IMG/VR virus record: IMGVR_UViG_3300025154_000061
Span: 28,260 to 92,259 of that record
Source: a virus
Length of the DNA stretch: 64,000 bases
Direction: 5' to 3' (one strand)
The notes beneath the pieces are model-generated. The model had not been told where the DNA came from and made no database searches. It worked only from the letters and a program-made list of their open reading frames with translations. Numbering within the stretch: position 1 is the stretch's first letter; every line of letters starts with the position of its first letter. This document shows, one piece after another, positions 1,758-26,356 of the stretch. Both the position numbers and the translations under genes were made by a program.

Positions 1758-2513
1758 ATGCCGACGCGGGAAGAGATCGTCGCGGGTATCGATCAAGCTC
1801 GGGGCCTTACGCCGCCCCTCGAAGTGCTGCGCGCGTGCCGCCGACTGACGCTGTCGGGGGTGTCGAGCGTTCCGGCGCTCGTTGACGGGCGTTGGTTCGC
1901 GGTCGTGTCGACGGCGACCTCGACGTTTGCAATGCCGATCGCCGGGTCGACCTCGCGCGTCGGCCGCCTCTACGACCGGATCTTCCCGGTCGGGACGCGC
2001 TCGGTGCTCTTCGGGGTTCACCATTGGGCGTTGCACCCCGTGCTCGTCGCGCTGGCGTGGCGCAAGCTCTACGGGGCATGGCCGACGCCTCGCGAGGCCG
2101 CCTGTATCTTCGTTCACGATCTCGGCTACCTCGGGAAGCGCACGATCGACGGCGCCGACGGCAAGCGTCACCCGGTCGCCGGGGCGACGATCGCCGAGCG
2201 CCTCTTCGGCGCCGAGTGGGGGGCGCTCGTGCTCTTCCATTCGGGCGACTTCGCGAAGGCGAAGGGCGGCGCGATCTCGAAGCTCTACGCCCCCGACAAG
2301 CTCTCGTTCTCGCTCTACCCGCGCGCCCTCTATCTCGCCCTCGCCCGGTTGACGGGCGAGCTTCACGAGTATCGGGCGACGGCCGCGATCGCGGGGGTCG
2401 TCGACGAGCACCTTCCCGACGTCGTTTGGTTCGACGTGATCTCTGCGCGCATGGCGGCGAAGGCTTCAAGATCGGCCGCTGCGTTCAGGGCGGCAGGGGG
2501 CGACAGGGGTTGA
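1758..2513 (+). CDS. HD-like domain phage protein
   Basis: GVHHWALHP...FVHDLGY...HP...FHS...PDK; GGGGG RBS before ATG1758. Confidence 0.55.
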   Translation: MPTREEIVAGIDQARGLTPPLEVLRACRRLTLSGVSSVPALVDGRWFAVVSTATSTFAMPIAGSTSRVGRLYDRIFPVGTRSVLFGVHHWALHPVLVALAWRKLYGAWPTPREAACIFVHDLGYLGKRTIDGADGKRHPVAGATIAERLFGAEWGALVLFHSGDFAKAKGGAISKLYAPDKLSFSLYPRALYLALARLTGELHEYRATAAIAGVVDEHLPDVVWFDVISARMAAKASRSAAAFRAAGGDRG

Positions 2514-2673
2514 CGATGCGCGTCGATCGCTGCTACCTTCGAGCCCGCCTTCCGTTTCCTTCCCATTCGCTCGGGGTCGGCCGGGAGATCGCGCGGGCTG
2601 CCTCTCGCGTGATCGCCCACGGGGGCCGACCCTCGCCACGATTCGGCCGCACAACGTTACCGCAGGGCGCCGC

Positions 2674-3588
2674 ATGAAGCGCCCCGCCTTCTGCCCGCTC
2701 GACGCGCTGCGCGCCTACCTTGGCGCGATTGCGAGCGGGCTCGGGGGCGACGGGGCGATCGAGCAGATCGCGCGCGTGACGCAGTGTTCCCGGGCTGGCG
2801 TCTACCGCCTGCTCGACGATCTTCGCGGGGTGGGGCTCGTGAACGGCGATCGCCTCGTGCTCTTCGCAAAGGGGTTGACGGTTCATTCTCATGCGCCGGG
2901 CGAAGAGTGCGCGGGCGAGATCGTGCTGACGCTCGCCGAGTCGGCCGATATGCTCGCCTGCGCTGCCGCCGGGCCGCTGCCGTGCGCCAACCTTCCGCTT
3001 GCGCTGTTGCCCGAAGAGCGCGCCAAGCTCGCCGCCGAGCTTCGACAAGGGGCGGCCGAGATCTGCGTCGTGCGCGAGAGGCGCCGCGAGAAGATCACGC
3101 CCGACGACGAATACCTCTTTCGGCTCTACTCGGCCCGTCGCGTGCGGATCGACGTGGCGTGGTCGGGCGGTCGCTGCCCGAAGAAGATCGCCGACGCCCG
3201 GCGCCTGCTCGTGCGACACCACGTCGAGAAGCCGCAGTTCGCCGCCTATCTCGATTGGCTTTTCGAGAACTTCCCGAAGTGGTCGAAAGAGAAATTGCAC
3301 TACCCGCCGATCGGGATCGTGGCGTCGCAGTCGGTGATCGACTCGTTTGTCGCGACGCTCGGGGAACGCCCGTTGAACTGGCGACGCGCCGTCGAGATTC
3401 TCGCCGAGGGGGGCTTCGCCGACGTCAACGTCTTCGTCGCCCTCGACGTCGCCAAGATCGCTCGCGCCAAGAACCGCGACCCGCGCACGCTGCGCGGGCT
3501 CGACGGGCGCTACCCCGACGCGGTCGCCTACCTGCTCGAACGCTACGCCGAGATCGGGATCCTACCCACCGAAGAGGCCGCCCTATGA
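2674..3588 (+). CDS. HTH-containing protein, possible replication initiator or helicase loader
   Basis: IEQIARVTQCSRAGVYRLLDDLRGVGLV is wHTH-like; ATGA-coupled to the helicase gene. Confidence 0.5.
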   Translation: MKRPAFCPLDALRAYLGAIASGLGGDGAIEQIARVTQCSRAGVYRLLDDLRGVGLVNGDRLVLFAKGLTVHSHAPGEECAGEIVLTLAESADMLACAAAGPLPCANLPLALLPEERAKLAAELRQGAAEICVVRERRREKITPDDEYLFRLYSARRVRIDVAWSGGRCPKKIADARRLLVRHHVEKPQFAAYLDWLFENFPKWSKEKLHYPPIGIVASQSVIDSFVATLGERPLNWRRAVEILAEGGFADVNVFVALDVAKIARAKNRDPRTLRGLDGRYPDAVAYLLERYAEIGILPTEEAAL

Positions 3589-4910
3589 CCACGACGATCG
3601 ACGTAGAGTTCGAGCGAGACGTTGTCGCCTCGTGCCTGCGCGACGAAGACTTCGTGCGCGCTGCGCTGCCTACGCTCTCGCGGCACAATTTCTCGTCGAA
3701 GCCCCTCGCGTTCCTGTGGGATGCGATCTCGACGAACTTCGTCGGCTCGCGCGAGCTTGTGACGCCGCGCCTGCTCTTCGCCAGGATCGATCGCGACTTC
3801 GCCCGCGAGGAAGAGCGCGACTTCATGCTCGACGTCGTGCGCGGGCTCTACGCCCGCAAGCCTGCCGCGCCGCGATCGTCGCTCGACCAGATCCGCGAGT
3901 TCGTGCGCCTGACCTCGGCCCGCGACACCGTCGGCGAGATCCTCGAAGGGCTTGACTCGGGGGATCTCGCGCGGGCCGAGGCCGCCATGATTGCCGGGAT
4001 CGAGCGCGCGAGGAAGGTCGTCGACGACGACGAGCCCGTCGAGTGGGCGACGTCGGCCTCGGCCCGCCTCGATCGCTACCGCCGCGAGAAGTCGATCGCC
4101 TCGATCAAGACGCCGCTCGAATCGCTGAACCGCTTCCTCGGGGGCGGGATGCGCCCCGGGCACCTTGGCTTGATCGTGGCGACGACGAACGTCGGCAAGT
4201 CGTCGCTCGCGACTGACTTCGGCTACTGCGCCGCCTTCCATTCCGACGCCGCCGTGATTCACCTCACGACCGAAGAGCCCGAATTCGAGCAGTCGGCCCG
4301 CTACGACAGCCGCTTCACGGGGATCGAGCGTTCGAAGTTCTTGCGGGGGGATCTGAGCGAGGCCGAAGAGATCTTCTACCTCGACCGCTTCAAGAGGCGC
4401 GAGGCCGAGATCAACCGGATCGCCGTGAAGGAAATCGGGACCGGGGGAAGCGCCGTTGTCGTGCGCCTGCTCGCCGAGTGGGCGAGAAGGAAGCACCCGA
4501 CGCGGCCCCTGCTCGTGATCGTCGACACGCCCGATCAATTGAAGATGCCGGGCAAGAGCGAGTCGAAGCGCCTCGACGCGACCGACGTCTATCTCGGGCT
4601 GCGTGGCATGGCGTTAGACAAGTCTTTAGCCCCGATCGCGGTGTGGGCAGTCACCCACGCCCCGGCCGCGTTCGAGGGGAAGAGCTTGACCCCGAAGGCC
4701 GTCAGCGAGTCTTACGACAAGGCGCGCTGTGCCTCGGTCATGGTAGGCGCCGAGGAAAAGGGCGATCTGCCGTCGGGCAAGAAGACGATCGTCGTGCGAA
4801 TCGTGAAGAACCGTCTCGGCCCCGTGAAGCATTACCGGATTTACACCGAGGCAGACTTCGGGATCTGCAAGTTCGAAGAGGTCGCGGGATGCGAGGAAGA
4901 CGAGGAATAG
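3585..4910 (+). CDS. dnaB: DnaB-like replicative helicase
   Basis: LNRFLGGGMRPGHLGLIVATTNVGKS (Walker A), HLTTE, LVIVD, IVKNR; followed by primase. Confidence 0.8.
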   Translation: MTTTIDVEFERDVVASCLRDEDFVRAALPTLSRHNFSSKPLAFLWDAISTNFVGSRELVTPRLLFARIDRDFAREEERDFMLDVVRGLYARKPAAPRSSLDQIREFVRLTSARDTVGEILEGLDSGDLARAEAAMIAGIERARKVVDDDEPVEWATSASARLDRYRREKSIASIKTPLESLNRFLGGGMRPGHLGLIVATTNVGKSSLATDFGYCAAFHSDAAVIHLTTEEPEFEQSARYDSRFTGIERSKFLRGDLSEAEEIFYLDRFKRREAEINRIAVKEIGTGGSAVVVRLLAEWARRKHPTRPLLVIVDTPDQLKMPGKSESKRLDATDVYLGLRGMALDKSLAPIAVWAVTHAPAAFEGKSLTPKAVSESYDKARCASVMVGAEEKGDLPSGKKTIVVRIVKNRLGPVKHYRIYTEADFGICKFEEVAGCEEDEE

Positions 4911-19180: not shown

Positions 19181-20036
19181 CCTTCGAGAACTCGGCGCCG
19201 AGTGGGCGACGTGCGCGCGTTGCCCGTTGCACGAGCGGCGCTCGTGCGTGATCGTGGGGGCTGCGGTCAAGAACGCGCCGACCGTCGACGATCCCCTTCT
19301 GCTCGTGATCGGCGAGGCGCCCGGCAGCGAGGAAGACGCCGAGGGCGTGCCGTTCGCCGGGAAGGCCGCCCGGGTCTTGCACGACGAGATCTTCGCGGGG
19401 GCTGGCGTTAGGCTTGCCTATGTCTCGAACTGCGTCGGCTGTCGCCCGCCCGGCAACCGCACCCCGGCACGCGCCGAGATCGAGGCGTGCGCGCCGCGTG
19501 TCGCTGCGTTGATCGAACTCACCGCGCCCGACGCGATCGTCGTGGTCGGCCCGGTCGCCGAGGAAGCCCTCGCCTCGGGGGTGTGGGGCGAGGGGGCCTC
19601 GACGCTGCCTTCCTGCGCGATCCTTCACCCGGCGACCCTTCTACACCGGGGGCACCCGACCGACGCAACGCGCCGGGCTTTGCGCGCCGAGGTCGCCAAG
19701 ATCTCGCGCCTGCTCGTGCGCCTCGGGGCGAAGAGGCCCGCCAAAGCCGAGCCCGTGCCCGAGGTCGCCGAGGTCGTCGCGCCCGAGTGCGCGCACGTCG
19801 GGGTTCCGCTCGGTCGGCTCGTCGCTCGCGACGGCCGCGAGGCGCCCCTCGTAGTTTGTCGCGAGTGCGGCGTCGCCCTCTCGGATCCCAAGGCGGCAGG
19901 ATTGACGCCAAGGCGTTCCGGCCGTCGAGGGGATACGACGTCAGGGGGCGCGCGCTCGAAACGCGCCACAATCGATCCTCGTGCGTCAGGCGACGAACGG
20001 GAGGGGGTAGACGATGCGACTCGCAACGATCGGTGA
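19167..20036 (+). CDS. udg: Uracil-DNA glycosylase, family 4-like
   Basis: CARCPL, IGEAPG, NCVGCRPPGNRTP, HPA. Confidence 0.9.
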   Translation: MPPRNLRELGAEWATCARCPLHERRSCVIVGAAVKNAPTVDDPLLLVIGEAPGSEEDAEGVPFAGKAARVLHDEIFAGAGVRLAYVSNCVGCRPPGNRTPARAEIEACAPRVAALIELTAPDAIVVVGPVAEEALASGVWGEGASTLPSCAILHPATLLHRGHPTDATRRALRAEVAKISRLLVRLGAKRPAKAEPVPEVAEVVAPECAHVGVPLGRLVARDGREAPLVVCRECGVALSDPKAAGLTPRRSGRRGDTTSGGARSKRATIDPRASGDEREGVDDATRNDR

Positions 20037-21264
20037 TCTTCACGTCGTCGACGGTGAACTCGACACGCAAGGCCCCGTGCTCGACGAGATCGCCGCAGGG
20101 GTCGAAGAGGCCCGGCCCGATCTCGTGCTCGTCGTGGGCGATCTGTCGGGACACCGCGTCCCGCACAAGGCGACGCCCCGCGAGCGAAACGCGCTCGTCG
20201 GCTTCTTCGCGAAGCTGGCGCAGTGTGCGCCCGTCGTGATCGTGCGGGGGAATCACGACTACCCGCGCGATTGGGAGTTCCTGAACGCGATCGGCGGGCA
20301 TTCGTTCTACTCGATCGGGTTCGTCGACGAGCCTTCGACGCTGACCGCTGGCAAGGCGGGGGCGCTCGCGCTCGTCGCGTGCTTCCCGTGGGTCGACCGT
20401 TCCCGGTTCGGTCCCGACGTCGACTACGGCGAGGCCGTGCGCACGCTCTACGACGCCGTCGTCGACGAGGCGCGCTCGACGATCGCCACGCTGCCCGACG
20501 ACGAGTTGCCGAACGCCGTGGTCGCCCTCGGTCACTGCGCGATCGCCGGGGGCATGATCGGGATCTTCGGTCAACCGTCGGTCCCGACCGCCGATCCCGT
20601 GGTCGCGATCGACGACGTCTGCCCGAGCGACGTCTTCGACGCGGGGTTCTTCGGGCACTACCACGCGCCGCAGGAACTACCCCGAGAGGGCGAGAGCGGG
20701 GGCGCCGCGTGCCGCTACGTGGGAAGCGCTTTCGTGTCGCAGCACGGCGAAGCGACCGCGAAGTCGTGGGGCGTGGTCGATATCTCGGGCGAGGGCAAGG
20801 CCCGAGCGCGAGAGATCCCGATCCCGCAGGCCCCGCGCGTGCTCTTGCGCGTCGACGGCGTCGCCCGTCGCATCGTCGAGATCGTGCCCGCCGCCCTTGT
20901 CGGGCTCTCGGCCGGGACGTTGATCGACGAGTGCAAGCCGATCGCCTTACCTCGGGGCGCGCCGAGCGCGAGCGTGAAGGTGCGGATCGAGGGGGCGATC
21001 TCGATCACCGAGGCGGCCCGCGCGTTCGATGAGATCGCCGCGTTGGTCGCCCCGGCTGCGCACTCGATCAAGCGCGAGTTCGCGATCGAGCGCGTCGCCC
21101 GTGCTCGCGAGGGCGCCGACGAGATCGCCAAGGCGACGACGACGGCCGACAAGCTCGCGCGCTACCTCGACACGATCAACCCCGCGCCGAGAGGCGTGAT
21201 CCGCAAGCGGGCGATCGCGTTGCTGGCCGAAATCGAAGCGACGCTCGACGCCCCGATCGCGTAG
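20014..21264 (+). CDS. sbcD: SbcD/Mre11-like nuclease
   Basis: GDLH, GD, RGNHD, GHYH, YVGS. Confidence 0.9.
   Translation: MRLATIGDLHVVDGELDTQGPVLDEIAAGVEEARPDLVLVVGDLSGHRVPHKATPRERNALVGFFAKLAQCAPVVIVRGNHDYPRDWEFLNAIGGHSFYSIGFVDEPSTLTAGKAGALALVACFPWVDRSRFGPDVDYGEAVRTLYDAVVDEARSTIATLPDDELPNAVVALGHCAIAGGMIGIFGQPSVPTADPVVAIDDVCPSDVFDAGFFGHYHAPQELPREGESGGAACRYVGSAFVSQHGEATAKSWGVVDISGEGKARAREIPIPQAPRVLLRVDGVARRIVEIVPAALVGLSAGTLIDECKPIALPRGAPSASVKVRIEGAISITEAARAFDEIAALVAPAAHSIKREFAIERVARAREGADEIAKATTTADKLARYLDTINPAPRGVIRKRAIALLAEIEATLDAPIA
21238..21263 (+). promoter_or_regulatory. GCGACG-N16-CGTA putative phage promoter
   Basis: Exact motif upstream of ORF 21298. Confidence 0.6.
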
Positions 21265-21297: not shown

Positions 21298-21636
21298 ATG
21301 ACGACCGACGGCAAGCTCGACGTCACCAAGTCGACGAAGAAGCGGGGCGATCTCGCCCCGGGCGCAGCGAGTGAGGCCGTGCCGGTCCCCTCGGGGCTGG
21401 CGCCTTCGGCGCACGAGCCCGAACATAGGTTCGCGCGGATCCGCGTGAACAAGGGGGCGACGATCAACATTGGCCGAATGGAGTTCCTTCGCTGCGACGT
21501 CGCGGTCGAACTCCCGTGCAAGCCCGATCTCGCCTCGCTCGACCGGGCGATCGATATCGCCGATACGATCGCGAACGACCGCCTCGTCGCTGAGATCGAG
21601 AACGCCCGCAAGCAGTCGGGCGGGGGCGACAAGTGA
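21298..21636 (+). CDS. Hypothetical protein
   Basis: GGGGG RBS; GATINIGRMEFLRCDV; GTGA-coupled to next gene. Confidence 0.65.
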   Translation: MTTDGKLDVTKSTKKRGDLAPGAASEAVPVPSGLAPSAHEPEHRFARIRVNKGATINIGRMEFLRCDVAVELPCKPDLASLDRAIDIADTIANDRLVAEIENARKQSGGGDK

Positions 21637-23459
21637 AGACCTACCCCTCGCTCTTGCGCGCCGCGAAGATCGAAATGCACGGGGCCTTTCAGCCCCGCAA
21701 GATCGACGGGCTCTTCTCGGCCGACGACGTCGAGAAGATGCGCCAAGGCGGCCGCGACGCGGGCCGCCCCTCGGGGTGGGATCCCGCGCGCTACGAGCCG
21801 ATCAAGGTGTGGAACCCCGACAGCAACGACGCGACCTGCCCGGCCGCGCTGCGCGATCGCTTCGCCGAGTGGTTCGTGATCAAGGGCTTTCACCGCCTCG
21901 CGCTGGCGAGGGCGTGCGGGATCGAGTCGCTCGACGTGATCGTCTGCGCGGGCTCGTTCGACGAGGCGGTCGCCGCGAGCAAGCGCTCGAACTTCGAGAC
22001 GCGCGCGCTTCACCCGATCGACGAAGCCGCCGTCTATCGCGATCGCCTTGAAGCGGGCGACACGCCCGAGCAGATCTCGCGCGACCTCGACCGCCGCGCG
22101 CCCGCCTACTACCGCAAGCGGGCCGCCGTCGCCTACCTGTCGCCCTCGTTGATCGCCGACGTGCGCTCGGGGCTTCTGCGCCTCGACTACGCCGAGCACG
22201 TCGGCCGCGCCGCGCAAGTCGGGGCGAGCCCGGCCGCGCAGGTCGCGATCGCCTCGGTCGCTGCCCGAACTTCCATGCGCGCCGAGCTTTTCGGGCGTTA
22301 CGTCGACAAGGTGATCGCCGCAATTGCCGCCGCGAAACCGGGCGAAGACGTGGTCGACGTCGCCGCCCGCGAGGGGAAGACGCTTGATCTCTTCCCGCCG
22401 ACGTTCGACGCGGGGGTCGCTGCCGTCGAGTCGATCACGATCGGCGAGGCTCGACGCGAGAGCGTGCGCGACGGGTGGGCGTCGATCGGGCACGCCGCCC
22501 GAGCGCAGTTGAAGCGCCTCGAAACCGAGGGGGTTCCGCCCCCGCCCGCCCTTGGAAGGTTGATCGCCATGATCGATAAGCAGCGCGCAGGGGAAGACAG
22601 GGCGGTCGCCGCGAGCGTCGGGGCAACCGACACGCGCGAAGCGCTGCCGTTGATCAAGTGGGTCGGGTCGAAGCGCACCGAGGCCCCGACGCTCGCCGCG
22701 ATCATTCGCGCACGCCTGCGGCCCGGCGCCGAATACTTCGAGCCCTTCTTCGGATCGGGCTCGGTCTTCTTCGCCGTCGCCCCCGAAACCGCCGTGATCG
22801 GCGACGTGCTCGAACCCGTGGTAAACCTTTACAAGTCGACCCGAGACGACCCCCGCGCGGTCTTCGCCGCCATGCGGGCGATCGTCGAGAAGGGGCTCGA
22901 CAAGGCGTCGTTCCTCGCCGCCCGTGACGCCGACCCGCCCGCCGATCGCTTCGAGCGCGCGGGGTGGTTTCTCTACCTGAACCGCACGGGGTTCAACGGG
23001 CTGTGGCGCACGAACAAGTCGGGCAAGCTGAACGCCCCCTTCGGCACGCCGAAGACCGTCGCCGCCTTCCCGACGCTCGATCGCTTCGAGCGCTGCGCCG
23101 AGATTCTCTCGGGCGCCGTGCTCTACTGCGGCGACTACTCGAAGGGCGTCGCCCGCGCCAAGGCTGGCGACGTGGTCTTCGCCGACCCGCCCTACCCCGG
23201 CACGTTCAGCGACTACGCCAAGCGCACGGGGCCGATCGACTACGCCAAGCTCGCCGCCGACCTGCGCGCCGCGCACGATCGGGGGGCGCACGTCGTGACG
23301 ACCCTCGCCGCGAGCGAAGACCTCGACGCGCTCTTCTCGCCTTGGTGCTACCGCGTCGACCTTTCGCGCACCTCGAACGTCTCTTGCAAGGCGTCGACGA
23401 GGGGCGAGTTCAAGCAGGTCGTTTGGTGCTCGCACGAGCGAGAGGGGGCCGCCGAATGA
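21633..23459 (+). CDS. ParB-like domain fused to Dam-type (D12 class) DNA adenine methyltransferase
   Basis: N-terminal FQPR...VIKGFHRLALA...SN...LHPIDEA + HTH; C-terminal LIKWVGSKR, EPFFGSGSV, YLNRTGFNGL, DPPY. Confidence 0.85.
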   Translation: MKTYPSLLRAAKIEMHGAFQPRKIDGLFSADDVEKMRQGGRDAGRPSGWDPARYEPIKVWNPDSNDATCPAALRDRFAEWFVIKGFHRLALARACGIESLDVIVCAGSFDEAVAASKRSNFETRALHPIDEAAVYRDRLEAGDTPEQISRDLDRRAPAYYRKRAAVAYLSPSLIADVRSGLLRLDYAEHVGRAAQVGASPAAQVAIASVAARTSMRAELFGRYVDKVIAAIAAAKPGEDVVDVAAREGKTLDLFPPTFDAGVAAVESITIGEARRESVRDGWASIGHAARAQLKRLETEGVPPPPALGRLIAMIDKQRAGEDRAVAASVGATDTREALPLIKWVGSKRTEAPTLAAIIRARLRPGAEYFEPFFGSGSVFFAVAPETAVIGDVLEPVVNLYKSTRDDPRAVFAAMRAIVEKGLDKASFLAARDADPPADRFERAGWFLYLNRTGFNGLWRTNKSGKLNAPFGTPKTVAAFPTLDRFERCAEILSGAVLYCGDYSKGVARAKAGDVVFADPPYPGTFSDYAKRTGPIDYAKLAADLRAAHDRGAHVVTTLAASEDLDALFSPWCYRVDLSRTSNVSCKASTRGEFKQVVWCSHEREGAAE

Positions 23460-26356
23460 AGATCGAACGCGTGCGCCTCGACGGGATCACCCGCTACCGC
23501 AGGCCGATCGAACTCGCGCTTCCCGAGGGGGTCGTCGCGATCGTCGGGCCGAACGGGTGCCTACAGGGCGACGTAGAGATTTACGATCCAACGGACGGAT
23601 CGTCCGTCGCCGTTCGCGATCGTTACAATCGGGGCGTGCCGTTTCACGTATGGGCGTTAGGGCCGCATGGGGTCGTAACGACGGCCGCAATGCCCCCTTG
23701 CAAGTATCCGCCCGCTCAAATGCTGCGATTGCGGTTCGCGGACGGGAAGTCGATTACGGTGACTCCGGCGCACAAGTTTTGGAGCGGCGCCGAGTGGTTG
23801 ACAGCTTCCGCCATTTTTCAAGCCCTGCGAGAGAACGGGCGCGTCCGGCTGCCGTCCAGTTCGGCCGCTTACCTGTCAACTCATGCCGAAGATGATCTGC
23901 GTTGGTGCGAAATAATTCCAGATTCTCCGGGCGGTTGTCGGCGTGTTCCCCGTTGCGATGATGCACGACTTCTTCCGGCAGAAGTCGGCGCCCGAGAATC
24001 CGTTCCATTACGAGGCGATGCTCCCGAACTAGCCCTTTGCGATCTGCGTCGGGGTGATACGGAAGCCGTAGAAGAATGTAGCCGTCGGCGTCAATCACCC
24101 GACCGCCGCGCCACGACCCATTGCGAGCGCCCGGCGCTCCCCGGTCACGAATCGCTCCTCCGACGTTGCGGATTGCCTTCGCGATCCGGCTTTGATTCGA
24201 GTGCATTGACCGGGCGATCTCCGCGAGACTCGCCCCGCTCTCGTAGCGTGCAAGAGCTTCGCGCCTCCGCTCATCCGTCCAATTCTGACGCATCGACGCC
24301 CCCCGGGGTTATGGTTCCTTTCGAAACATACCCCGCGATTGACCCGTCGACAATCGAAATTGTCGCGGTTGGCGAGCTACCGTGCGAGCCTTACTACGAC
24401 TTCCACGTCCCGGTTCACCTAAACTATTGGGCCGCCGGGGTCTGGAATCACAACTCCGGCAAGACGACGCTTCTCGAATGCCTCGGCCCGGCCGTCTTCT
24501 TCCGCGAGTTGCCGACCCGCGAGCCCTCGGGAATCCAGAATTGGATCGGGCCGAAGGGCGGCCGGATCGAACTCGACTTCGTGCGGGGCTCGCGCCGCTA
24601 CGAAGCGATCGTCGAGATCGACGGGTCGGGCAGGCAAGCCGCGTTCCTGACGTGCGACGGGGTCAAGCTCGCGTCGGGCAAGGTGCGCGACTACGACGTC
24701 GAGATCGCGAAGGTGGTCGGCAACCGCGACGCCTTCTACGCCTCGGTCTTCGGGATGCAGGGCGGGGGCGGGCGCTTCGAGTCGCTCGAAGTCACCGACC
24801 GCAAGGCGATCTTTCGCTACTACCTCGGGCTCGACCGGGTCGACAAGGCGCACCGCGCCGCCCGCGCCCGCCTCGAAGCGCTCGACGTCTCGAAGATCGC
24901 CACGCTGCGCGCCGATCTCGAAGCCTGCGAGACGGCGATCGCCGAGGCCGAGGCCGACGTCAAGGCTGCGGTCTTCGCGGCCGACGCCGAGCGCGAGGTA
25001 AGTCGCAAGGCGCGCGCCAAGCTCGACGACCTGCTCGCGCTCTCGTCGACGGCCGAACTCGTCGACGCCTACGACACCGCTCTCGACGCGGCGGGCGAGG
25101 CGCAAGACGCGCTCACCGCCCTACCTGCCCGCCCGGCCGCCGCGCCTGCGCCGACGGGCGACAAGGGCGCCGCTACGATCGCCTTAGAGGCCGCGAGGAA
25201 GAAGAACGAGGGCTACCTCGTCAAGAGCGCCGAGATCGCCCGCGTCGGCTCTTCGCTGGCGACGGCGAACGCCGACCTCGTGCGGGCGAACAAGGCGACC
25301 GAGCGTCTCGCGCGCGTGCCGTGCAAGGGCGAGGGCGCCTTCGCCGGGTGCGAGTTGCTGCGCGACGCGATCGCCGCGCGCGAATCGATCGCTGCGCTGC
25401 GCGACGTGTGCGCCAAGGCCGAGCAGGCGCACGAGACGTTGAAGGTCGAGGTCGCCGCGCTCGTCGTGCCCCGCGAGAAGCTCGACGCACTGCGCGCCAA
25501 GGTCGCCGAGGCCGAGCGGGAACTTGAAGCGCACCGCCTCGGGGCCGAGCGCTGCCGCGCCTACGACGAGAAGCGCGATCGACTGAACCGTGCGCTCGCT
25601 GACGCGAAGAGGCAGGCCGCCGCGCTGCGTGCCCGGCTGCCGAAGGTGATCGACGACGTGCCGTCGCTGGCGCAGATCGACGCCGCTCGCGAGGCGAGCG
25701 CCGCCGCGAGTGCCGCCTACGAGAAGGCGATCCGCGAGCACGAGGCGGGCGTCGCTGCGTTCGGCGGCGCCCTCGATCGCAAGGCCGGGATCGAGAAGGC
25801 CCTCGCCGCCGAGGAAGCTCGCGCCGCCGACGCGCCCGCGCTCGAACTGCTCGCCCGCGCTCTCGGGGCGAACGGGATCCAAGCCTACGAGATCGACGCC
25901 GCAGGCCCCCGCGTCTCGGCCCTCGCGAACTCGCTCTTGCATGCCTGCTACGGGCCGCGCTTCGACGTCGAGGTGCGCACGACGAAGGCGTTGAAGAGTG
26001 GCAAGGGCGAGAAGGAAGACTTCGACGTCGTCGTCTACGACAACGACAGCGGGATCGAGAACACGATCGCCGGGCTGTCGGGGGGCGAGAAGGTGATCGT
26101 CGACGAGGCGCTTCGGCTGTCGCTCGTGATCTTCGCCGACGAGCGCCTCTCGGTTCCGTTCCGGGTGCTCTACCGCGACGAGACGATCGGCGGGCTCACC
26201 CGGGACAACCGCGCCGCCTATGCGCGAATGCTTCACCGCGCCCGCGATCTCGGCGACTTCGGGCAGATCTTCCAAGTGACCCACGACGAAGAGTCGAGCG
26301 AGAGCGCCGATGTCGTGATCGCGATCGACGAGTCGGGCAATGTCTCGGTCGCATGA
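23456..26356 (+). CDS. sbcC: SbcC/Rad50-like SMC ATPase, intein-containing
   Basis: GPNG/[intein]/SGKTT Walker A, Q-loop MQG, coiled coil, LSGGE, DE, QVTH. Confidence 0.92.
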   Translation: MKIERVRLDGITRYRRPIELALPEGVVAIVGPNGCLQGDVEIYDPTDGSSVAVRDRYNRGVPFHVWALGPHGVVTTAAMPPCKYPPAQMLRLRFADGKSITVTPAHKFWSGAEWLTASAIFQALRENGRVRLPSSSAAYLSTHAEDDLRWCEIIPDSPGGCRRVPRCDDARLLPAEVGARESVPLRGDAPELALCDLRRGDTEAVEECSRRRQSPDRRATTHCERPALPGHESLLRRCGLPSRSGFDSSALTGRSPRDSPRSRSVQELRASAHPSNSDASTPPGVMVPFETYPAIDPSTIEIVAVGELPCEPYYDFHVPVHLNYWAAGVWNHNSGKTTLLECLGPAVFFRELPTREPSGIQNWIGPKGGRIELDFVRGSRRYEAIVEIDGSGRQAAFLTCDGVKLASGKVRDYDVEIAKVVGNRDAFYASVFGMQGGGGRFESLEVTDRKAIFRYYLGLDRVDKAHRAARARLEALDVSKIATLRADLEACETAIAEAEADVKAAVFAADAEREVSRKARAKLDDLLALSSTAELVDAYDTALDAAGEAQDALTALPARPAAAPAPTGDKGAATIALEAARKKNEGYLVKSAEIARVGSSLATANADLVRANKATERLARVPCKGEGAFAGCELLRDAIAARESIAALRDVCAKAEQAHETLKVEVAALVVPREKLDALRAKVAEAERELEAHRLGAERCRAYDEKRDRLNRALADAKRQAAALRARLPKVIDDVPSLAQIDAAREASAAASAAYEKAIREHEAGVAAFGGALDRKAGIEKALAAEEARAADAPALELLARALGANGIQAYEIDAAGPRVSALANSLLHACYGPRFDVEVRTTKALKSGKGEKEDFDVVVYDNDSGIENTIAGLSGGEKVIVDEALRLSLVIFADERLSVPFRVLYRDETIGGLTRDNRAAYARMLHRARDLGDFGQIFQVTHDEESSESADVVIAIDESGNVSVA
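23754..24293 (-). CDS. HNH homing endonuclease with N-terminal HTH, antisense inside the SbcC intein
   Basis: WRGGRVIDADGYILLRLPYHP...VREHRLVMERILGRRLLPEEVVHHRNGEHADNRPENLELF; G-run RBS upstream of ATG. Confidence 0.88.
   Translation of the reverse strand: MRQNWTDERRREALARYESGASLAEIARSMHSNQSRIAKAIRNVGGAIRDRGAPGARNGSWRGGRVIDADGYILLRLPYHPDADRKGLVREHRLVMERILGRRLLPEEVVHHRNGEHADNRPENLELFRTNADHLRHELTGKRPNWTAAGRARSLAGLEKWRKLSTTRRRSKTCAPESP
24325..24353 (-). promoter_or_regulatory. Sigma70-like promoter for the antisense HNH gene
   Basis: Minus strand TTGTCG-17-TATGTT, about 30 nt upstream of ATG24293. Confidence 0.55.

Follow-up and report, generated by a model that had tools for sequence, protein, structure and literature searches.

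Can one stretch of phage DNA carry a self-splicing intein on one strand and a complete homing endonuclease gene on the other? The question is raised by an SbcC/Rad50-like ATPase gene in IMG/VR virus record IMGVR_UViG_3300025154_000061, a 92,259-bp record that is ~90% complete and comes from groundwater metagenomes. We analyzed a 64,000-nt stretch of this record, referred to here as the window (68% G+C). In it, the Walker A motif (P-loop) of the ATPase is divided by an insert whose minus strand reads as a helix-turn-helix (HTH) and HNH endonuclease gene. In our assessment, the locus is likely to be a composite selfish element, in which a P-loop intein and a trans-acting HNH homing nuclease encoded on the opposite strand share the same DNA.

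The intein in the SbcC-like gene

The plus-strand open reading frame (ORF) beginning with the ATG at 23456 translates as MKIERV...VAIVGPNG, followed by 299 residues running from CLQGDVEI to GVWNHN and then by SGKTTLLE. Because this ORF reads across both junctions, the insert can be placed exactly at 23558-24454, where it divides GPNG from SGKT; a 299-residue intein at this position had been called in the first-pass annotation, whose coordinates and sequence details all proved correct, and the translation bears it out. The Cys1 codon (23558-23560) directly follows the N-extein, and the intein ends with H298-N299, after which comes the +1 Ser of SGKT. The joined exteins, GPNG and SGKT, reproduce the Walker A sequence GPNGSGKT of the intein-less homologue P0126. 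Among 45 aligned related inteins, C1, H72, D281, and N299 were invariant, and the block B motif T69-P-A-H72 (TPAH, 23762-23773) combined this invariant His with a Thr conserved in at least 90%. The plus-strand features are as follows.

23456 to 26356, plus strand: SbcC/Rad50-like ATPase gene, 965 codons counting the intein (phrog_77, SbcC-like, 124 bits; Pfam SMC_N)
23456 to 23557, plus strand: N-extein of 34 amino acids, whose last residues, VAIVGPNG, supply the first Walker A half; P0126, a homologue lacking the intein, has AIAGPNGSGKTTLLES
23558 to 24454, plus strand: class-1 intein of 299 amino acids, with Cys1, block B from T69 to H72, C-terminal H298-N299, and Ser at +1
23558 to 23857, plus strand: N-terminal part of the HINT splicing domain (intein residues 1-100), with an AlphaFold2 predicted local distance difference test score (pLDDT) of 84-98
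23858 to 24340, plus strand: sense-frame linker (intein residues 101-261, 161 amino acids), a stop-free and unstructured "shadow" of the HNH gene
24341 to 24454, plus strand: C-terminal part of the HINT splicing domain (residues 262-299, with blocks F and G, YYDFHVP...VWNHN), pLDDT 81-98, with conserved columns
24455 to 26356, plus strand: C-extein, beginning with the second half of Walker A (SGKTTLLE), from the ORF translation and homologue comparison

The intein was modeled with AlphaFold2 on an alignment of the 45 related inserts, both HINT halves reaching pLDDT values of 95-98. When the model was searched against the PDB with Foldseek, the top matches were the Mtu RecA, Ssp DnaB, Npu DnaB, and Ssp DnaE inteins, with E-values down to 1e-6 and template modeling (TM) scores on the target of up to 0.83. 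The match of the SbcC intein to the Pfam Intein_splicing profile was below cut-off (16.2 versus 35.8 bits). A folded domain in the sense-frame insert had been named beforehand as one of the observations that would speak against an antisense gene. None was predicted, residues 101-261 having pLDDT values below 50 and no secondary structure. The sense-frame middle of the intein also gave no family match in profile searches. The G+C content at third codon positions (GC3) of the sense frame falls to 0.33-0.57 in the middle of the insert, as compared to ~0.9 in the exteins, and the overall G+C content of the intein is 58-62% as against 70% in the exteins.

The host gene itself is unsplit, with a single open, in-phase frame extending from 23456 to 26356. 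An Rfam search of 23200-24800 returned no match at E ≤ 1, so that there is no recognizable ribozyme core in this region. The protein held for this locus in the sequence collection (P0124, 681 amino acids, spanning 24311-26356) starts at Met252 of the intein, at window position 24311. Automatic gene calling has thus cut the SbcC gene short, with loss of the N-extein and the N-terminal part of the splicing domain.

The HNH gene on the minus strand and selection on both strands

The minus-strand ORF, from 24293 to 23754, is complete within the bounds of the intein. Its features, together with the stretch that it shares with the structured part of the intein and its candidate expression signals, are given here.

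23754 to 24293, minus strand: free-standing HTH-HNH endonuclease gene (product P0002), 179 amino acids plus stop, ATG to TGA, with Pfam HNH_3 and PHROG HNH matches
24156 to 24293, minus strand: HTH DNA-binding domain (residues 1-46) with three helices, 7-18, 23-29, and 34-43, as modeled by AlphaFold2
23868 to 24119, minus strand: HNH (putative beta-beta-alpha-metal) catalytic core, residues 59-142, with invariant columns and a column conservation of 0.6-0.8
23804 to 23857, both strands: dual-coding stretch of ~54 nt, with intein helix 83-93 and strand 96-100 opposite HNH residues 147-164 (the WTxxGRAR tail)
24325 to 24353, minus strand: candidate promoter TTGTCG-17-TATGTT, weak, with 8 of 12 consensus matches
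24299 to 24304, minus strand: candidate ribosome-binding site GGGGGG, 5 nt before the ATG

The reading of this ORF as an HTH and HNH gene, already made from the letters alone, was upheld by profile searches. P0002 matched Pfam HNH_3 (PF13392) with 33.1 bits at a cut-off of 24.8 and the HNH endonuclease family phrog_20891 with 95.5 bits, and a six-frame search of the genome recovered HNH_3 with 35.5 bits. Weak HTH-like matches were found at residues 2-33. There were 1935 homologues at E ≤ 1e-3, the closest being 45-65% identical and 170-290 amino acids long, all with HNH_3. In an alignment of 24 sequences, the invariant residues H112, N114, D119, N120, R121, N124, N131, and H134 are all kept in P0002, the catalytic His and Asn positions (H112, N114, N120, N124, and H134) among them, as are further invariant positions out to W146 and G150.

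In the AlphaFold2 model of P0002 (mean pLDDT 87.9), three helices make up the N-terminal domain, which is accompanied by a beta-beta-alpha core and, at the C terminus, a long helix. The N-terminal domain aligned with the DNA-binding domain of GcrA at a VIA-align Z of 7.0 and with other HTH proteins at Z values of ~6-7. The best VIA-align match of the core was I-HmuI (1u3e), with Z 7.2 and a root-mean-square deviation of 3.1 over 77 residues, Z values below 8 being common by chance. Foldseek comparison of the HNH model with the PDB gave an E-value of 0.22 at a probability of 0.97, with nothing at E ≤ 0.001, and a profile search of solved structures with P0002 returned HTH repeats only. Because the structural Z values are middling, the assignment of P0002 to its family is based mainly on the profile matches.

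Both strands of the overlap are under selection, in different ways: the HNH strand for its protein sequence, and the host strand for an open frame only. Across the HNH ORF, the host frame contains no stop codon, where the two remaining antisense frames have 6 and 7. When synonymous codons were shuffled within the HNH gene, the host frame acquired a mean of 3.3 stops, and the probability of none was 0.009; with codons drawn from the usage of the host gene, it was 0.016. Since no stop is present where shuffling yields 3.3, the open frame exceeds chance and is held open by selection. As for protein sequence, among 73 non-redundant family members the column conservation of the HNH frame was 0.6-0.8 from 24113 to 23843, while that of the sense frame was high only at 23558-23797 and 24368-24454. 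Pairwise identity over the same nucleotides was 46% in the HNH frame versus 19.5% in the sense frame. Nature offers here a clean example of both strands coding over a long range with selection that can be measured, and the unconstrained tether marks a region that tolerates arbitrary sequence and would be useful for intein engineering.

The HNH gene had also been described as overlapping block B with its 3' end. The overlap is physically present, as the end of the ORF lies opposite TPAH, but the last ~20 HNH codons are an unconserved run-on, and the overlap of structured parts is confined to the ~54 nt listed above. The proposal that the gene is separate, and no product of a frameshift artefact, is the one on which fold, family, selection, and comparative evidence all agree.

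The promoter and ribosome-binding site proposed upstream of the HNH gene are both present as sequences, although the promoter, with its 8 of 12 matches, falls below the threshold of 9/12 at which a scan of 23300-24800 returned no sigma-70-like site. Across the family described below, with HNH starts chosen heuristically, Shine-Dalgarno-like motifs were found upstream of 63% of the starts versus 15% in phase-preserving shuffles. For such motifs of at least 5 nt, the figures were 36% versus 2%, and for sigma-70-like sites of at least 9/12 within 150 nt upstream, 49% versus 14%. These signals argue that the HNH gene has its own ribosome-binding site and, probably, its own promoter.

A family of antisense-HNH inteins and how the element may move

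The window locus belongs to a large conserved family that the first-pass annotation had not seen. Related loci were fetched with the HNH alignment (n = 160, 80 each from genomes and viral contigs), and in 88 of the 160 a frame on the opposite strand spans the HNH match and stays open for at least 1500 nt. In every one of these 88, codon position 1 of the host lies opposite codon position 1 of the HNH gene. Simple motif rules delimited the intein in 83 rows, the window included. The boundaries nearly always take the form G..G/C[LIV]xGxT ... HN/[STC]GK[ST], a few lying one step later (GK/C...HN/T), and at least 70 distinct insertion sites were reconstructed. Terminase large subunits account for most C-exteins (35 Pfam matches among 62); the other hosts include AAA ATPases, clamp-loader subunits of DNA polymerase III, SNF2/ResIII helicases, AAA_34, and further families. 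More distant HNH_3 relatives, whose match is limited to the core, are ordinary free-standing genes and lack an antisense frame.

A constraint from the genetic code was considered as the cause of the single phase and rejected: all three antisense phases can become stop-free by synonymous recoding. Since any phase can be so recoded, the use of one phase throughout speaks for an arrangement inherited by common descent. Similarities of the HINT and HNH sequences co-vary as well, with a modest Mantel-type correlation that is inflated by related sequences (Spearman 0.28, a value reached in 0 of 500 permutations). The nearest relatives of the window in HINT (L001, L082, and L083) are also its nearest in HNH, and for at least L001 the host is a different one, with an AAA-type P-loop (LVGIPG/CGKT). 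The co-variation is consistent with travel of HINT and HNH as one unit.

The arrangement is also found in cultured phages. In Pectobacterium phage Koroua (L165, PQ008972.1, record positions 2451-4715), an antisense HNH 44% identical to P0002 lies unannotated in a 754-residue "hypothetical protein" adjoining the portal gene. The protein reads ...VAGFG/CVHPHTKV...HIHHN/TGKS..., and these intein boundaries identify a terminase-like P-loop intein. Seven related Pectobacterium and Dickeya phages match likewise. Pectobacterium phages Amona, Sabo, Taid, Pappous, Ymer, and Abuela share the layout. With 88 of 160 loci spread over many ATPase families, and cultured Pectobacterium phages among the carriers, the layout is no curiosity.

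Two observations were made on individual sites of the family. In L002, from a metagenome-assembled genome of Mycobacterium sp., the residue after the HHN of the intein is apparently Gly (HHN/GGKS) and not Cys, Ser, or Thr; this may be a splicing-dead copy or a boundary displaced by the motif rule. Of 70 sites, 46 use GGC for the Walker A Gly that directly follows the insertion point, within a core GGC AAR WCN, a preference that could mark the nuclease target or merely codon usage.

Among the closest SbcC homologues, which share 40-44% extein identity, the insertion site is found in three states. It is empty in P0126 (AIAGPNGSGKT) and in P0128 and P0131 (GPNGAGKT). P0127 shares both the intein and its position, with 42% identity over the whole intein and much more in the HINT ends. 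In P0125 (1001 amino acids), the GPNG/SGKT site is occupied by a different intein, in which an HNH-like motif (EHRVV...HAHHEDHNSLNNDPANV) is read in frame and an HTH comes after it. An in-frame HNH_3 is also present in an SNF2-helicase intein (P0224, 840 amino acids), and with these two, sense and antisense HNH inteins coexist in related hosts. Derivation of the antisense form by simple inversion of an in-frame HNH intein was considered and is unlikely with P0125 as the source, since the order HNH then HTH along the DNA is the same despite the opposite orientation. As fits a homing gene, the HNH gene lies inside a self-splicing element, and the intein is sporadic among SbcC homologues. That the same SbcC site can be empty, hold an antisense-HNH intein, or hold an in-frame HNH intein supports the view of intein evolution in which splicing comes first and the nuclease invades later. 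A search of viral contigs for related loci, made with the C-extein, found no relative.

The composite element would operate as follows. From the plus strand, the class-1 intein would be translated within the SbcC-like protein, splice itself out, and restore GPNG-SGKT; only residues 1-100 and 262-299 would form the splicing domain, with the 161 residues between them acting as a stop-free, unstructured tether. The DNA of this tether would, on the minus strand, serve as a complete gene for an HTH-HNH endonuclease of the I-HmuI-like HNH_3 type, having a start codon and ribosome-binding site to itself and probably a promoter as well. Its product, a separate HNH protein, would bind and nick or cut P-loop-coding DNA that has no intein. 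Repair from the intein-bearing copy would then put both the intein and the HNH gene into the empty site, amounting to homing in trans, and splicing of the intein would make the insertion harmless to the host gene.

Several points weigh against this reading. We infer minus-strand transcription from sequence signals, of which the window itself offers a weak promoter candidate and a ribosome-binding site that is a plain run of G. Nuclease activity, the target site, and splicing in the antisense-HNH family are likewise predictions. The 88 loci were chosen for their open antisense frame, so that their zero stops are no independent test, the independent facts for recurrence being the 88/160 proportion, the intein motifs, and the single phase; the size and inflation of the HINT-HNH correlation noted above count here too. 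Finally, an intein-less allele of this phage was not seen in four metagenome runs from other studies, for which short contigs only were available. The reads of these four runs gave short pieces identical to the window and no joints, and holes in their coverage were uninformative.

Some of these points would be expected if the intein were real and the HNH gene a silent or decaying passenger, the whole being passed on vertically and amounting to a mini-intein whose long linker is junk. The weak local promoter, the lack of an empty allele in those runs of short contigs, and the apparent +1 Gly of L002, which indicates that decaying copies may exist, all fit such a passenger. We consider it unlikely, as the ORF is intact from ATG to stop with all family-invariant catalytic residues kept, its HNH fold is predicted with confidence, and it is the HNH frame rather than the sense frame that is conserved. 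An unexpressed antisense ORF, its frame otherwise unprotected, would gather stops fast. Conservation of the HNH protein sequence, and not merely of transcription, also bears on the speculative idea that the antisense gene is mainly regulatory, with convergent transcription or an antisense RNA tuning SbcC and homing secondary. The geometry permits this, in that an HNH transcript would be fully complementary to the sbcC mRNA; the same cassette, however, occurs in terminases, helicases, clamp loaders, and AAA ATPases with no common regulatory need, and a chiefly regulatory role is very unlikely.

The remaining alternatives deny one or the other half of the element. Long antisense ORFs are common in a window of such high G+C content, and the minus-strand ORF might be taken for a chance shadow of a GC-rich coding region, with the real endonuclease in the sense-frame insert. 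We find this hardly credible given the Pfam and PHROG matches to HNH families, the 1935 homologues, and the confident beta-beta-alpha-metal model, set against a sense insert of low GC3 with neither family match nor predicted structure. On the other side, the gene caller split the locus, starting P0124 at Met252 (24311), as it might if there were no contiguous intein and the insert were instead a group I or II intron with an endonuclease gene, a split intein, or an insertion killing sbcC. The single in-phase frame with selection against stops, the HINT fold assembled from both ends, the Rfam result, and the same continuity of frame in 88 loci make this highly improbable.

An extension of the composite-element reading is that HINT and antisense HNH form a mobile cassette of single origin that hops between P-loops, in which case the HNH protein would recognize the DNA encoding the Walker A Gly-Lys-Ser/Thr, where GGC AAR is enriched. 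This is possible, but we are somewhat more inclined to doubt it than to accept it. If true, the cassette could move from one ATPase gene to another, unrelated one (terminase, SbcC, clamp loader, helicase, AAA+), and separate overlapping nucleases would be a common, overlooked route by which phage inteins acquire and exchange mobility genes.

Relation to described inteins and further features of the phage

Four non-canonical endonuclease arrangements in inteins are listed in a study of actinophages (10.1101/2025.01.02.630785). They include antisense LAGLIDADG or VSR-like ORFs and a same-strand EndoVII-like nuclease, and HNH is given as an in-frame domain only. The same preprint predicts that non-canonical inteins are under-reported. 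It also cites the Synechocystis DnaX and Chloroflexus SpoVR-like inteins as having an antisense or out-of-frame endonuclease ORF (Gorbalenya 1998, Gogarten 2002, as described in 10.1101/2025.01.02.630785). A second preprint describes the cyanobacterial dnaX intein as having an out-of-frame LAGLIDADG in the +2 frame (10.64898/2026.09.14.751524). The content of Gorbalenya 1998 is described differently by the two preprints, as antisense and as alternate-frame (10.1101/2025.01.02.630785; 10.64898/2026.09.14.751524). Antisense nucleases are unmentioned in a 2016 survey of mycobacteriophage inteins, and full-text literature searches found no description of an antisense HNH in an intein.

The present intein resembles these non-canonical inteins in that its nuclease is encoded by an overlapping ORF of its own within the intein, no structure is recognizable in the in-frame middle, and the splicing domain and nuclease apparently travel together; it is also like them in having been overlooked by annotation pipelines. 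It differs in its HTH-HNH_3 nuclease, which is neither LAGLIDADG nor VSR-like, in its site, the Walker A loop of an SbcC-like ATPase, and in belonging to a large family of at least 70 distinct loci with one fixed codon phase. Because HNH is known only in-frame in the described inteins, the antisense HNH is set apart from the LAGLIDADG and VSR-like types. It is a previously undescribed version of a rare non-canonical intein architecture, which is thereby extended to the HNH family. Gene callers break such loci, shortening the host genes and missing the nuclease or the intein.

Inteins whose HNH lies in frame, such as P0125 at the same SbcC site and P0224, likewise have an HNH nuclease within a HINT domain, at the position where endonucleases are usually inserted. 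There, however, the nuclease is within the intein polypeptide, whereas here it is a separate opposite-strand protein and the intein polypeptide has only a disordered tether. The I-HmuI-type HNH nucleases of phage group I introns (1u3e) share the combination of an HNH core with a separate DNA-binding module, and they too are encoded inside a self-splicing element as free-standing proteins, as is predicted here. The carrier in the present case is an intein, so the DNA must also be kept open to translation on its other strand; the HTH here is at the N terminus, and nicking, known for I-HmuI, is predicted here at most. A separate nuclease gene between N- and C-terminal splicing parts is also seen in "fractured genes", split inteins with a free-standing endonuclease gene between their halves (Dassa et al. 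2009, as described in 10.1101/2025.01.02.630785). In contrast to these, the host gene here is whole, and one frame passes through the antisense strand of the nuclease gene.

A second non-canonical intein is present in the same phage, in motif II (DExH) of a ResIII/DEAD helicase, with the boundaries FIDE/CFPAG...VVHN/CHHL. A same-strand, out-of-frame VSR-like combination of the kind found in it is not among the arrangements of the actinophage study (10.1101/2025.01.02.630785). It comprises two features, and two further rows give the neighbors upstream of the SbcC-like gene.

1 to 724, continuing ~200 nt upstream of the window, plus strand: second intein (Pfam Intein_splicing, 37 bits)
51 to 674 (positions 1751-2374 of L162), plus strand: ORF for a 207-residue DUF559 (Vsr-like) endonuclease on the same strand in another frame (PF04480, 46 bits)
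20014 to 21264, plus strand: SbcD-like phosphoesterase gene, followed by a small ORF
21633 to 23459, plus strand: ParB-DNA-methyltransferase fusion gene, directly upstream of the SbcC-like gene

The genes flanking the intein locus are all on the plus strand, and protein homologues of the SbcC-like product bear the name exonuclease SbcC. Short contigs identical to window 22800-25300 were found in groundwater and soil metagenome runs of several studies; given this identity across studies, different samples repeatedly contain the same phage or relatives nearly identical to it. At window 23456-23459, the start codon of the SbcC-like gene and the TGA that ends the ParB-methyltransferase gene before it share bases (ATGA), and this overlap of stop and start suggests translational coupling in an operon running from sbcD to methyltransferase-sbcC.

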